Source: an uncultured Pelagibacteraceae bacterium (lineage in GTDB: Bacteria; Pseudomonadota; Alphaproteobacteria; Pelagibacterales; Pelagibacteraceae). From it: a stretch of DNA of 64,000 nt. The DNA lies in assembly GCA_902579605.1 (NCBI GenBank), contig CACHHD010000002.1, positions 22,442 to 86,441 on the forward strand, read 5' to 3'. Both the position numbers and the translations under genes were made by a program. Below the pieces are notes generated by a model. It was given only the letters and a program-made list of their open reading frames with translations. It ran no database searches and had not been told where the DNA came from. Shown here one piece after another: positions 58,801 through 64,000 of this stretch. Positions within the stretch are counted from its first letter, which is position 1, and each line of letters starts with the position of its first letter.

Positions 58801-59595
58801 ATGAGTAAAAAACCGCCACCTAAGCAATTCGTAAAGACACCAATTAATGGAACTAAGTTTACTTTACTTATTTCAAGTGCAAAGGGTGGAGTAGGTAAAT
58901 CTACAGTAGCGGTGAACCTTGCTTTTGCATTCAAAAATTTAGGATTAAAAATTGGTATTCTAGATGCAGATGTTTATGGTCCCTCACTTCCAAAATTGAT
59001 GAATATTATTGAAAAACCAGAAACTGAGGGCGGCAAAGCCATAGTACCAGTAGAAAAATATAATTCTCAATGTATGTCAATGGGATTTTTAGTAGATGAA
59101 CAAACACCAATGATATGGCGTGGCCCGATGGTAATAAGTGCAATTAAGACGATGACACAAAAAGTTTTGTGGAAAGAGAGAGACATTATTATAATAGATA
59201 TGCCGCCTGGAACTGGGGATACACAATTAACATTTGCTCAGGAAGTAAAAGTTGATGGAGCTATAATTGTTTCAACACCACAAGATTTAGCTTTATTAGA
59301 CGTAAAAAGAGGTATTCAAATGTTTGAAAAAACCGGAGTAAAAATTTTAGGCTTAATTGACAATATGAGCTTCTTTAAGGGAGATGACGGTAAAGAATAT
59401 AAAATATTTGGAGAAGGTGGTGTAGAGAAAACTGCTAAAGAATTTAACAAAGTGTTCTTAGGACACCTTCCTTTACATCAAGACTTGAGAAATTCGGCTG
59501 ATATTGGTAACCCACTTACTAATTCTCAGCCAGATCATGAAGTTTCAAAGTTATTTATAGATATTGCTAAAAAAATTAAACAATCTTTTCTTTAA
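58801..59595 (+). CDS. mrp: Mrp/ApbC/NBP35 Fe-S cluster carrier ATPase
   Basis: [30 protein letters not shown] and STPQ motifs. Confidence 0.92.
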
Positions 59596-60523
59596 AATCA
59601 AAAGAACTCATAAGTTCATTCCATTCTCTTTTTGAAAGATTAGAACCTTCAAATGTAACTTTTTCACCTTTAGCCATTTTTTGAATAACTTTTTTACCTT
59701 TAGAGGAAACATGAACAGCACCAACCCTATAGTCTAAAAATGCTGAGTGAGTTATGGGCACCCATTTTTTTAGTGTCTCAAGCATAACATCTGCATAAAC
59801 CCTAATTTCATATTGAGCATGACTATCTGCTCTAAGAAATAAAAAATTTAACAAATTTAGTAGATCAGTTTTCCAATACCATTGAGTATATGAATTTAAA
59901 GTCAAATTCATTCTTGCTAACTCTCTCGCTAAGCCCGCTTTACTTTCATCAATGGTGGTTCCATCAAATCTTTCATTAAGCATTTTTTCATAGTTGTCAT
60001 AAGTTCTTGTGGCATCGTCTTTTAATATCTTTAAAACTTCATCAGCTTGGTCTCCAGTGATTAAGTCGCCTCTCCCCTGTCGATTAGAAATGGATTGAGC
60101 TGACAATTGTTCTTTGGCAGGAATATAAAATTCTTTATCTAATATTGAATATCTTGCAGAATATTCATTAACGTTTGCTGTTCTATGTCTTATCCATTGT
60201 CTTGCAATAAATATTGGAAGTTTAACATGATATTTAATTTCACACATCTCAAAAGGTGTTGAATGCCAGTGTCTCATTAAATATTTAATTAAACCTTCAT
60301 CTGTTGAAACTTTTTTTGTTCCTTTTCCATAAGAAACTCTAGCTGATTGCACTATTGATGTATCATCACCCATATAATCAACTACTCTTACAAAGCCATG
60401 GTCTAAAACAGGTAATGCTTCGTAAAGAATTTTTTCTAATTCTGGCGAAGTAACTCTTTTAGTCTGATTTTTTTGAGACTGTTGATCAGCTATTTCTTGC
60501 TTTTGTTCTTTTGTTAGTTTCAT
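59576..60523 (-). CDS. thyX: Flavin-dependent thymidylate synthase
   Basis: ARVSY, HSTPFE and [14 protein letters not shown] signature. Start set at ATG 60523 (MKLTKE) because the longer ORF overlaps the tmRNA. Confidence 0.95.
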
Positions 60524-60570
60524 TTTGAATAAAGTTATTGAATCTCTAAAAAAGAGTTTTATATTATAAA

Positions 60571-60829
60571 TGTTGGTTTTCCAACTATGACGATAAACGA
60601 ATCTCGTAATAAACATTGCGGACGTGGGGGCAGTACCCACCACCTCCACCATTTACAACTTGAGGGGGTGAATTAGGCTCGACGGGTGTCTAAAAGTTTT
60701 TCTTTCGTCCGAGATAGTTCCGACGTAACGGGCTAATTATAAATGCAAATAATAAATTTGCACTTGCTGCTTAATTAACTTGTTAATTAAGTGAACGGGG
60801 TTTGGGGCACCTGGCAACAGAACGCCCCT
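60571..60829 (+). ncRNA. ssrA: tmRNA, two-piece circularly permuted alphaproteobacterial type; tag (A)ANNKFALAA*
   Basis: Acceptor piece ends GTGGG-GGCAGTA-CCCAC-CACCTCC-ACCA (60651). After a 12-nt intervening segment the coding piece starts GGGGGTG (60664), pairing with CACCTCC and giving the G3:U70 Ala identity pair. Tag ORF 60745-60774. 3' GGGGC..CTG-GCAA-CAG..GCCCC stem. Upstream TTGAAT...TATATT promoter-like element. 5' end approximate. Confidence 0.93.
60805..60829 (+). repeat. 25-bp direct repeat copy 1 (attL-like; ssrA 3' end)
   Basis: GGGCACCTGGCAACAGAACGCCCCT, identical to 61311-61335. Confidence 0.95.
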
Positions 60830-60872
60830 GCGTATCGGCGTTAACACTTATTAATTCATAACTTTTTTAGCT

Positions 60873-60892
60873 TTGGGCACACATAGGACACA
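60873..60892 (+). repeat. Two arm-type-like repeats, 11-bp period
   Basis: TTGGGCACA (60873) and TAGGACACA (60884). Confidence 0.7.
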
Positions 60893-60907
60893 GTGAGAGA
60901 AGAAAAT

Positions 60908-61198
60908 TTATTTTTTTTTAAAGTTTAACTCAGCTCCTTCAAGATAATAACATCTCCAGCCGAAATTCAATGCTTTCAGATTATCATTTTTTGATAACCA
61001 TATTCTAGGGTATTCGCCTTTATAGTCTTTAATAACTTTATCTACTTTCCAGCCATCATAAACATATCGATATAAATCTTTTTCATCCGAACAATCTATC
61101 CAAGCTTGATCTTCTGGAATAAAGATTAACGCTAACGTGATTGCTATAAAGATTGGTAAGAAAATTGAATAGAAAAAATACTTAAAGATTTTAATCAC
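60908..61198 (-). CDS. Orphan membrane-anchored protein (cassette cargo)
   Basis: 96 aa, GTG start, N-terminal TM helix and a small soluble domain with two Cys; fills the cassette between the repeat clusters. Confidence 0.7.
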   Translation of the reverse strand: MIKIFKYFFYSIFLPIFIAITLALIFIPEDQAWIDCSDEKDLYRYVYDGWKVDKVIKDYKGEYPRIWLSKNDNLKALNFGWRCYYLEGAELNFKKK

Positions 61199-61219
61199 TA
61201 AACTTTTTTAATATTTAAC

Positions 61220-61250
61220 TTGGGCACAATTAGGGTCCAATTTGGACACA
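61220..61250 (+). repeat. Three arm-type-like repeats, 11-bp period
   Basis: TTGGGCACA (61220), TAGGGTCCA (61231) and TTGGACACA (61242); same motif and orientation as 60873-60892. Confidence 0.7.
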
Positions 61251-61310
61251 GCTGCCAAAGAAATTTGAGTATTTTAAACTCTAGAATTGTTGTATTACGT
61301 TAAAGGTTAA

Positions 61311-61335
61311 GGGCACCTGGCAACAGAACGCCCCT
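61311..61335 (+). repeat. 25-bp direct repeat copy 2 (attR-like displaced ssrA 3' fragment)
   Basis: GGGCACCTGGCAACAGAACGCCCCT followed by TTT. Confidence 0.95.
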
Positions 61336-61450
61336 TTTCAATTTAAATATTTATCAAGATTTTTTTCCTTAGCCGCAACTAAAATATTTTTGAAATAACC
61401 ACTCATATTCTCCATCAATATATTTGCCTCTATTTACGGTGCTAGTGGTA

Positions 61451-61490
61451 CACACTACCTCGCACTAGCTCACACTACTTCACACTATTT
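61451..61490 (+). repeat. Four tandem 10-bp repeats (consensus CACACTAnyT)
   Basis: CACACTACCT CGCACTAGCT CACACTACTT CACACTATTT. Confidence 0.85.
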
Positions 61491-61586
61491 ATGCGGATAA
61501 TTAAAATGTAATTTAATTAAATTTCCGTAAAGACTCATTAATTTAAGCACCAAACTAGGTACAAAACTAGAGGATATTTAGATAAA

Positions 61587-64000
61587 TCACATACCATCGT
61601 AAATACTTTTTCCATTTCCAAAATAACTTGAATAAATATGTTGGTAAACTTTCATAGTATTAGATTCTATCTCGCGGTCAGCATAAACTGTTTGTGGAAG
61701 ATGAAGTAAACAATCTCTAATAATTGTTTTAATTTGTGCTGTAATTTGCTGGCTTTCTCTCCATCTATCGATTTTAAGTTTTTCCTCTTTTAATATTTTA
61801 AGTGTTTTAATTGCAACTTCTTTAACAGTTTTAATATCTTTTTTATTTAAATTTTCTTTTTTTAACAAATCAAAAATTGCTAAGGTTTCTTCATCCAGAT
61901 TTTCTCTTATACTTCTATTTTCTTCTTCATCGAGTTCATTTACAAATTTAATTAAATCTTCAAAAGCTTTACGAACAGCTTCAGCGTCTTTTCCTTCGTT
62001 ATATTCTTGTATTATTTTTAAATATTTTTTATAAAAATCTGCTCTTTCTGGATTTTTTTGAATCATTCTTTTTAATTTTTTATCAATTGCATCTTTAAGA
62101 TCAAATACAGATTTATTTAAAGTTTTTTTCTTAAACAGTTCTTTTAATTTTTCAAAATCGAGCTTACTAAGGTCTATTTCAATATTTTCTCTATTATTAT
62201 CTTTTTTTATTTCAATAAATTCTCCTACATAATCTTGTAATTTTTTCATCACTTCTGTGATGTCTGTTTTTTTTATCTCTCGATTTAGGCTTCTGTAAAT
62301 AGCTTCTATTGCATCAAATTCTTTGCTAAATTGTTTAATTTCTTTTTCAGGATAAAGTGAATTAAATTTATTAATTACTATCTTTGCTTTAATTTCAAAT
62401 TCTGCTTTTGTATTATCATTTTGACAGACTGAATTAATAGCGTCTTGTATTAGTTTTAATTTTTCAACAGGAGAAGCCTCTATAAGTGAATCTAAATTAA
62501 ATGATAAATCTAAGAGTAATTTTTTAAGGTCTTTAATGGAGTTTTTTATTTCAAAAACTAATTGCTCGATATTTCTAGTCGGTTTTTCAATATCATCTTT
62601 ACCATCAGATTGGCTGTTGCTGCCTTCACCATAAATACTATAAGCTTGTTCTAGTTGTTTATAAACATTTCCATAATCTACTATCAAACCAAGTGTTTTC
62701 TCATCATCATAAACTCTGTTAGCCCTAGCAATAGTTTGCATTAATGTATGACCTTTAATTGGTTTATCTAAATAAATCGTTGATACACCTGGAGCATCAA
62801 AACCTGTAATCCACATGGCACAAACTATAACAAGTCTAAAAGGATTTTCATTATCTTTAAATTCCTCATCAAGTTGCCTACTAACCATTTTTCTTCTGTG
62901 TGTTTCAATATCAAGTTCAAGTTTTTTAAATTTATCTATTTCATTTTGCTCAGGGCTAACAACTACACAAATTTCAGTTTCAGATATTTTTTTTAATTTA
63001 TGTTTTAATTCTAATTTTAATGTTTCATCAATTGTAGAGTTAATTTTTTCTTTTAACTCGATCAAATAATCTTTCCAATATTTCGAAATGTATTCATACA
63101 TCTTAACTGCTGTTGGCTTATCAAGAGCTACGAACATTGCTTTACCTTGATATTTACGATCATTAAAATGCCATACAACATCTTTTGCAATTGATCTTAA
63201 TCTTTTTTCTGAAGTCATTATTGGATAATTGCCTTTAAGAGCCTGCTCTACTTTTTGTCTTTGGTCTTGATCTAAATCCTCTTTATTAATTATTTCGGTT
63301 AACTGATCGTCAATTTCTGGATTTTCGATATTTAACTTGTCCCCTCTATTTAGATATGTCAGAGGTAAGGTCGAACCATCATCTATTGAAGATTTAAAAT
63401 CATATATAGAAATATATTCTCCAAAAATATTTTTAGTAATTTCTTCTTCGCCACTAATTATTGGTGTACCAGTAAATCCAATATATGATGCATTAGGCAA
63501 AGCTTGAAATCTCATATTTCTTGCATAAACTCCACCTTGTGTTCTATGAGCCTCGTCTGATATGACTATGATATCTTTTCTCTCACTTAATAATGGATAT
63601 TCCTTTTCTTCTTTATTTGTCGAAAATTTATGAATTAATGTAAATACATATTTATGATTTTCTCTGAGAAGCTCTCTTAAATGATCTCTAGATTTAGCTA
63701 ACAAACTTTTATCTTTAACTGCACCTACTGCCGTAAAATTTTTATAAATTTGTGTTTGTAGCTCTTCTCTATCAAGAACAATAACAATAGTGTAACTTCC
63801 ATAAAATTTTCTATGAATTTTCTCAGCTAAAAAATACATAGAATAACTTTTTCCACTTCCCTGTGTGTGCCAAAAAACTCCTAATTTACCTTTCAGATCA
63901 TCTACTGATTTAATGTTTCCTATTACATTATTAACACCATGAAATTGATGATTTTTGGCTAAAATTTTAATTATCTTTCCACCTGAGTCTTCATAGGCAA
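61587..64000 (-). CDS. hsdR: Type I restriction endonuclease subunit R (5' part lies beyond the window end)
   Basis: Frame stays open to the window end and includes WHTQGSGKS (Walker A) upstream of the track's Met; DEAHR, GFTGTP, TGFDAP and LMQTIARANR helicase motifs; DUF3387-like C-terminus. Confidence 0.93.
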   Translation of the reverse strand, partial: AYEDSGGKIIKILAKNHQFHGVNNVIGNIKSVDDLKGKLGVFWHTQGSGKSYSMYFLAEKIHRKFYGSYTIVIVLDREELQTQIYKNFTAVGAVKDKSLLAKSRDHLRELLRENHKYVFTLIHKFSTNKEEKEYPLLSERKDIIVISDEAHRTQGGVYARNMRFQALPNASYIGFTGTPIISGEEEITKNIFGEYISIYDFKSSIDDGSTLPLTYLNRGDKLNIENPEIDDQLTEIINKEDLDQDQRQKVEQALKGNYPIMTSEKRLRSIAKDVVWHFNDRKYQGKAMFVALDKPTAVKMYEYISKYWKDYLIELKEKINSTIDETLKLELKHKLKKISETEICVVVSPEQNEIDKFKKLELDIETHRRKMVSRQLDEEFKDNENPFRLVIVCAMWITGFDAPGVSTIYLDKPIKGHTLMQTIARANRVYDDEKTLGLIVDYGNVYKQLEQAYSIYGEGSNSQSDGKDDIEKPTRNIEQLVFEIKNSIKDLKKLLLDLSFNLDSLIEASPVEKLKLIQDAINSVCQNDNTKAEFEIKAKIVINKFNSLYPEKEIKQFSKEFDAIEAIYRSLNREIKKTDITEVMKKLQDYVGEFIEIKKDNNRENIEIDLSKLDFEKLKELFKKKTLNKSVFDLKDAIDKKLKRMIQKNPERADFYKKYLKIIQEYNEGKDAEAVRKAFEDLIKFVNELDEEENRSIRENLDEETLAIFDLLKKENLNKKDIKTVKEVAIKTLKILKEEKLKIDRWRESQQITAQIKTIIRDCLLHLPQTVYADREIESNTMKVYQHIYSSYFGNGKSIYDGM

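Follow-up and report, generated by a model that had tools for sequence, protein, structure and literature searches.

The window analysed here (the whole stretch of 64,000 nucleotides) contains an ssrA gene for a permuted tmRNA with the tag peptide ANNKFALAA, the 3' end of which is an integration target (Table 1). The earlier note on this DNA had described a unit of 506 bp at this site, enclosed by an exact direct repeat of 25 bp, with an intact frame for 96 amino acids and clusters of motifs at both inner ends, and all of these features were borne out. The repeat, hereafter the core, corresponds to the tmRNA gene's 3' end; its two copies are identical, spaced 506 nt apart and cannot be extended in either direction. 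Since exact same-strand repeats of at least 25 nt form only six groups in the 974-kb assembly, two of which represent the core, the duplication is not a chance event.

In the left end, a spacer of about 45 nt is followed by two arm-like direct repeats (60873-60881 and 60885-60893) and a purine run, located where related satellites have the RBS of their integrase gene. The right end contains arm-like repeats at 61220-61228, 61232-61240 (degenerate) and 61242-61251, and then a conserved A+T-rich spacer. The two clusters, 60873-60893 and 61220-61251, display the motif GG(A/G)CACA, and only two such pairs were identified in the assembly. This is a layout of the lambda type, with a core and arm-type direct repeats on both sides, spaced 11-12 bp apart, about one helical turn, at offsets of 48 and 58, and judging from the sequence these repeats are putative integrase-binding arm sites. 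A terminator-like tail had also been noted at the second core copy. A CCCCTTTT tail does occur, but the position was not called as a terminator and the predicted fold was no better than those of shuffled sequences (z -0.5), for which reasons a terminator here was rejected. The tail was instead taken as part of the following cassette's left end, where the logic of att sites places it.

Table 1. Features at the ssrA end of the window, with window coordinates.
Feature	Position	Strand	Evidence or comment
thyX	59576..60523	-	Pfam Thy1, E 3.9e-54; core gene, lies upstream of ssrA and served as marker of the host
ssrA, permuted (two-piece) tmRNA	60534..60832	+	Rfam RF01849, 212.6 bits; ARAGORN
Core copy 1, attL-like	60805..60829	+	Native 3' end of permuted alphaproteobacterial ssrA
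Left end, type A1, conserved	60830..60906	+	Alignment of 36 A1 ends; comparison with G417
Cargo ORF, 96 aa	60908..61198	-	No family or fold match; predicted membrane anchor and small domain
Right end, type A variant tied to cargo gene family	61220..61310	+	Alignment of ends
Core copy 2	61311..61335	+	attR-like of cassette 1, attL-like of cassette 2
Arm-like repeats, left end of cassette 2	61451..61487	+	10-bp-spaced; motif differs from cassette 1
hsdR of cassette 2	61587..64000	-	Type I R-M hsdM-S-R, 6,398 bp; ends at core copy 3 beyond the window

The single ORF in the unit had no family match, and no integrase HMM matched anywhere within the 506 bp. Its frame is open and evolves under purifying selection, with dN/dS values of 0.065-0.19 against 7 homologues. 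The protein yielded no Pfam, PHROG or Atlas match and no PDB fold match at an E-value of 0.001; it has a predicted N-terminal membrane anchor and a small alpha/beta domain, and its structure model has a pLDDT of 68.8. We identified 31 homologues, mostly small unknown proteins. Nearly identical DNA of the cassette was recovered from marine sequencing runs of several studies, for example as a 515-nt contig with 7 differences in X7, and in one RNA run a contig covers part of the ORF, which is not proof of transcription.

The unit is the first in a tandem array on contig C2, which holds four core copies and a degenerate fifth. Beyond the window, the core recurs at C2:90150 (one mismatch) and C2:90754, with the degenerate copy near C2:91071, and the sizes of the units thus delimited are 506 bp, 6,398 bp (a type I R-M cassette), 604 bp (with DUF3764) and roughly 320 bp. 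In each of the first three, arm-like repeats were present at either end, and none of the units contains an integrase gene. The earlier note had proposed a helper integrase from a neighbouring island, phage or satellite, of which the neighbouring island is not supported: the neighbour is the type I R-M cassette, and the only tyrosine recombinase found in the source assembly is one Xer-like gene on another contig, although at 80.5% completeness the assembly may lack a helper located elsewhere. The host is most likely a member of SAR11, judging from the order of thyX and ssrA, a G+C content of 29-30% and the Pelagibacteraceae names borne by relatives of an integrase from the same genus.

Two further observations were made on this array. 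The second cassette (window 61336-64000; C2:83777-90149) carries a complete type I R-M system and its left and right arm motifs differ, which on sequence grounds suggests a chimera or a hidden internal boundary. The segment C2:90150-90778, along with 26 other segments, has ends of a second family, type B, with arm motifs of their own and a TATGCT -10-like site shortly before the cargo start; here too, the arm variants appear to match between the ends.

Recurrent ends around unrelated cargo genes

The core was identified in 143 of the 178 genomes of the genus, in 1-8 copies, with at least two copies in 86 of the 178. For the analysis of the intervening segments, we used 81 arrays, of which 80 were fetched, chosen mostly for having several cores, and one was the source array. 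Cutting at cores with up to 3 mismatches yielded 196 segments with a median size of 838 bp, counts that are approximate since at least 4 more degenerate cores were missed. A match to an integrase HMM was obtained for one of the 196 segments, and Pfam searches with 141 representatives of the larger cargo families revealed no phage integrase. Annotated cargo genes include those for restriction and HNH nucleases and for hydrolases; many others have no family.

Both ends of type A were present in 43 of the 196 segments (the 506-bp unit and 42 others), from 36 genomes, with sizes of 394-2,118 bp and cargo that could be divided into 40 sets and 54 families. The earlier note had seen no integrase in the unit and had proposed to look for further core copies with different cargo genes between conserved ends, and the arrays of the genus contained such copies and integrase-less units; the ends were not limited to large integrase-bearing islands, and the cargo varied. 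Only the left end was found in 5 segments, only the right end in 19 and neither in 129, whereas 105 of the 196 lacked all of the defined end motifs. The left and right ends were thus paired within segments (43/5/19/129, p 9e-23) and not across the core (7/35/10/64, p 0.79), although the p-values for end pairing are overstated since the genomes are kin and most arrays were selected for several cores. The arm variants also matched from left to right (14.9 versus 9.1 +/- 1.5 in shuffles, 0 of 5,000 shuffles, n 36). The arms of the left end were located at an offset of 48 nt in 47 of 53 matches and at 58 nt in 2. Sequence identities were modest, with medians of 90% for the left and 87% for the right end as compared to 84% for a rough host marker.

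The gene for the 96-aa protein has different neighbours in six arrays and was also found at further sites. Its homologues in L067, L068, L070, L073 and L081 are not at ssrA but next to tRNA ends or to other arm-like repeats, and similar cassettes seem to use sites other than ssrA. We also observed a recurrent 409-bp segment with no recognisable arms that was 93-96% identical across hosts (L109, L113, L118, L120, L125, L126 and L130).

A promoter-like site built from the arm repeats, with a TTG-type -35 box, a gap of 17 nt and a TATGAT-type -10 box, was present in 51 of 62 type-A right ends, as scored with a pattern that was written after the alignment had been seen. In 44 of these 51 ends, an ORF of at least 60 codons started 5-8 nt after the -10 box, as compared to 2.2% in random windows, and the first genes behind such ends fall in 34 families. 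All cargo ORFs of at least 80 aa in the type-A cassettes (82 of 82) are on the minus strand, pointing away from the right end, versus 155 of 216 cargo ORFs in the other segments. The pattern suggests that the type-A right end is a predicted promoter for leaderless cargo transcripts. The right-end variant of the 506-bp cassette, which also occurs in four homologous cassettes, has no canonical promoter, and no promoter role was found for the left end.

Integrase-bearing elements and the probable movement of the units

The search for a cognate integrase, which the earlier note had proposed to look for beyond the window, yielded candidates. A family of tyrosine integrases of about 330 aa (Pfam PF00589, PHROG 1) was present in 32 of 401 genomes of the family, and three elements with this integrase, all in a sister genus, are located at the ssrA core. 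One is 14.0 kb in size and contains the integrase, a primase-like gene and then minus-strand cargo like that of the cassettes (G325), another is 6.2 kb (G596), and the third is split over two contigs for which the linkage is inferred (G417). In all three, an arm pair and a purine-rich RBS immediately precede the integrase gene. None of them has arms that match those of the cassette exactly, the family has just two members in 137 genomes of the cassette's own genus, neither of them at ssrA, and no element was found in which exact type-A ends occur together with an integrase and the ssrA core.

The left end of G417 has the same first 10 nt and the same arm offset as the integrase-less ends L107 and L197-L199. 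Its offset of 58 exceeds that of type A1, 48, by one helical turn, and its likely right end holds an arm of the A2 type. Compared by eye, 6 of 9 letters are common to its arms and those of the 506-bp cassette, and among four helper left ends it was the only one that resembled the left end of the cassette more than shuffled sequences did (p 0.004, versus 0.27-0.75 for the others). The protein collections contain 310 close homologues of its integrase. GGACACA arms like those of the 506-bp cassette are also present in an element at tRNA-Glu in the cassette's own genus.

A fourth element at ssrA, of about 7.5 kb and likewise in the genus of the cassette (G042), has an integrase of another family, its own arm repeats and a serine resolvase; as the arms differ, this integrase was rejected as the helper. 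A 409-aa tyrosine-recombinase-like protein of this element (L042:3480-4709) has 45 homologues and catalytic-type motifs that are missed by Pfam and PHROGs. Satellite-like elements of 4-16 kb with the same integrase family as in the sister genus were observed at tRNA-Glu, -Met, -Ser, -Arg and -Leu, and those in L153, L154, L206-L216, L312, L313 and L317 have a repeat pair just before the integrase RBS.

Taken together, we consider it probable, if far from certain, that the 506-bp unit is a non-autonomous cassette, to which a rare satellite-like element lends the tyrosine integrase that cuts it out and inserts it at ssrA. Mobilisation in trans is something we infer, since neither an excision circle nor an exactly matching integrase was found. 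The ends would descend from the attL and attR of a satellite that lost its integrase-primase module, with the left end stopping where the integrase gene of the satellite would begin; the layout of the ends matches that of the ssrA satellites, and no parent with identical ends was found. With a helper or its integrase at hand, a complex of the lambda type would assemble on the arms and the core, and the unit would exit either in circular form or joined in tandem to the helper. It would then enter at the intact end of ssrA and so move older units farther out. In most members of the family, the right arms would double as a sigma-70-type promoter for a leaderless mRNA, giving expression at any rank. 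The vehicle between cells could be a phage capsid shared with the helper, or a vesicle.

The enzyme might alternatively be the XerC/D recombinase of the host, the Xer-like protein being the only tyrosine recombinase found in the source genome. We regard this as highly improbable, since the arm-type direct repeats and the satellite-att layout are unlike a dif-like site, which is 28 bp long, and dedicated integrases are located at the ssrA core in four relatives (G325, G596, G417 and G042).

Movement solely in cis, whereby a helper integrates at ssrA in front of the cassettes, later excises with them as a composite and then decays, is a more serious alternative that we nevertheless judge to be improbable. 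This route is documented by tandems of CIMEs and ICEs (PMC5704250, in the part consulted) and has been proposed for Dehalococcoides in the cited part of PMC3146451; it would provide the packaging route that a bare 506-bp circle lacks, and the cargo behind the integrase-primase module of G325 is of the same kind. However, an integrase was present in only one of the 196 segments, and none adjoins the 506-bp unit in the source genome. Movement in cis alone would exert no selection to keep the left arm pair of every unit intact, and does not easily explain the same single unit at different ranks.

Such units were indeed observed. A 374-bp unit is 100% identical in two arrays, at rank 1 in one (L052_1) and at rank 3 in the other (L098_3), with unrelated flanks; in L098 a gene other than thyX lies upstream, so that no host identity can be given for this pair. 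Another pair (L039_4 and L129_1) is 99.2% identical over 1,332 bp, as compared to 85% for thyX of the hosts. The type-A units are mostly found at rank 1 (31 of 43), and exact cores make up 60 of 76 at rank 1 but only 5 of 27 from rank 4 onwards. A block of 888 bp with 99% identity recurs in five different cassettes, and one array (L048) has, about 130 bp before its second core, a cargo-free type-A frame, in which the left end is fused to the right end through an arm repeat. Because of this shared block and the empty frame, recombination other than att-type exchange must also act here. No go-back junction of a circle was found in the Logan contigs of 8 runs, where contigs break at the core so that the absence proves nothing, and the skip joints listed there have sides of 21-27 nt, indistinguishable from repeat artefacts.

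These data also bear on a third alternative, according to which the cassettes are dead satellite remnants that spread only by RecA-type recombination via the core and the ends of 70-110 bp, the ends being kept because the right one supplies a promoter. SAR11 recombines freely, internal modules have been swapped between cassettes, the empty frame in L048 was formed through arm repeats, and neither a circle nor an exact helper was found, all of which are in line with this explanation. On the other hand, whole units are identical from core to core while both flanks change, the left end keeps its arms at a fixed offset with no promoter role found for it, the arm variants co-vary between the ends, and fresh units are located at rank 1. 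We therefore consider remnants spread by homologous recombination to be unlikely, although less so than movement in cis, and prefer the borrowed integrase.

A bolder version of the borrowed-integrase model is that SAR11 runs an active, MITE-like cassette system, in which a left end of 70 bp and a right end of 100 bp serve as a reusable frame for both mobility and expression and are mobilised in trans across species by rare satellites. Unrelated genes would then be fitted exactly at the start codon, and ssrA would be a port for the exchange of single genes in the most abundant of ocean bacteria. We put this forward tentatively, as a possibility to which we give less weight than to the borrowed integrase as such.

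If the right end combines a recombination site with a promoter, cargo would be expressed wherever it lands, and this would account for the circulation of defence genes (R-M systems and other nucleases) and small exported proteins with no resident integrase. Mobilisation of the cassettes, if true, would let streamlined cells swap single genes. The substrate (core and arms), the candidate enzymes (the integrases of G325, G417 and G596) and the 506-bp unit are all specified, making site-specific exchange directly testable in E. coli, and SAR11 genetics might thereby obtain a natural vector for integration. All this refers to one locus and not to the flexible genome as a whole.

Relation to known systems and occurrence of the core in phages

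Integron cassettes are small units of one or a few genes that are stacked with the newest first, and depend on intI and attC hairpins. The units at ssrA are similar in size, gene content and stacking order, which is as far as the likeness to integron cassettes suggested in the earlier note goes: there is no resident intI or other integrase near the array, and the repeat is the ssrA end, which folds no better than shuffled sequences, rather than an attC hairpin. The units also have their own arm sites, usually a predicted promoter of their own, and ssrA as the target.

CIMEs are decayed ICEs or IMEs that are moved in cis by conjugation and stacked in tandem, as described in the part of PMC5704250 that we draw on. 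Like these, the units have no integrase or transfer genes, are stacked one behind another at an RNA gene's 3' end and keep attL and attR, here represented by the core duplication and the paired arm-like ends as putative att sites. They differ in that a single standard pair of ends encloses no fewer than 40 cargo sets, 0.4-2.1 kb in size, in that the ends usually include a predicted promoter flush with the start codon and in that the likely helpers are satellites.

The cited part of PMC3146451 describes tandem ssrA islands in Dehalococcoides that are bounded by ssrA 3' repeats of about 20 bp, 15 of 31 having no integration module; these islands are several kb in size and about half have the serine recombinase module DsiA/DsiB. 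The tandem units bounded by ssrA 3' repeats, many of them with no integration module, are thus common to both systems, whereas the system studied here has a permuted ssrA, helpers with tyrosine integrases, an integrase in 1 of 196 segments and conserved arms. A DsiA/DsiB-type module is absent from the 506-bp cassette, and the only resolvase among the 141 cargo representatives is the one in the G042 element.

Additive islands in streamlined bacteria resemble the arrays in having variable tandem cassettes between partial RNA-gene repeats at one site. In Methylopumilus fGI-2, short repeats of RNA-gene ends separate cassettes from 330 bp upward (PMC10872708, relevant part), and among the gMED islands of SAR11 one is located at the tmRNA gene and four have partial tRNA repeats (PMC11796062, relevant part). 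The descriptions cited from these two papers include no arm sites, reusable end pairs, built-in promoter or helper.

Tycheposons and VEIMEs have a tyrosine integrase and a primase at tRNA or tmRNA genes in oligotrophs, with the newest element beside the RNA gene, and what defines them is an integrase of their own or packaging in the form of concatemers; about 20% of VEIMEs have no detected integrase (parts of 10.1101/2020.12.28.424599, PMC9618062 and PMC11876622). This is the layout of our helper candidates, with an integrase and usually a primase. The 506-bp cassette differs by having no integrase or replication genes. The part of supplement 3 of PMC9618062 that we draw on has no 'Pelagibacter' entry. 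Our comparison of known systems also makes use of parts of 10.1101/2024.08.29.610337, PMC11915505 and 10.1101/410191.

The suggestion in the earlier note that the system is undescribed is hence true in part. Tandem units with no integrase at the ends of ssrA or tRNA genes have been published for other taxa, as CIMEs, as additive islands and as the ssrA islands of Dehalococcoides, and satellites are already known in SAR11. For SAR11, we found no description of paired reusable ends or of a built-in promoter in the open-licence literature, although subscription papers and supplements may hold one. A 2026 preprint on 15 Arctic genomes reports, in the part cited, no link between variable regions and tRNA or tmRNA genes, and calls the mechanism by which SAR11 gains flexible genes unresolved (10.64898/2026.10.07.757358); the cited part of PMC11796062 likewise reports no canonical mobile elements in SAR11 islands.

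Searches of phage collections, and the loci listed from a metagenome scan, gave no element with the cassette ends and an integrase. In IMG/VR there were no matches to the type-A ends, and of the integrase alignments there, A1 and A3 gave none and A2 only distant ones (at most 35%), none adjoining a core. Phage records had no DNA match; none of the 344 integrase matches reached 60% identity, and the 15 listed were at about 32%. A metagenome scan for the right end together with the core yielded 30 loci, and the loci listed were chromosomal arrays with no adjacent integrase seen. The core itself was found at 8 loci in IMG/VR and rejected as an attP at all of them, each being the tmRNA gene of a large phage-like contig. 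These contigs (L003-L010) have a tmRNA gene of their own, with the tag ADENLALAA and a 3' end that is the same core, and carry ribonucleotide reductase or neighbouring phage genes. The permuted tmRNA gene of these phages could be a second att target.
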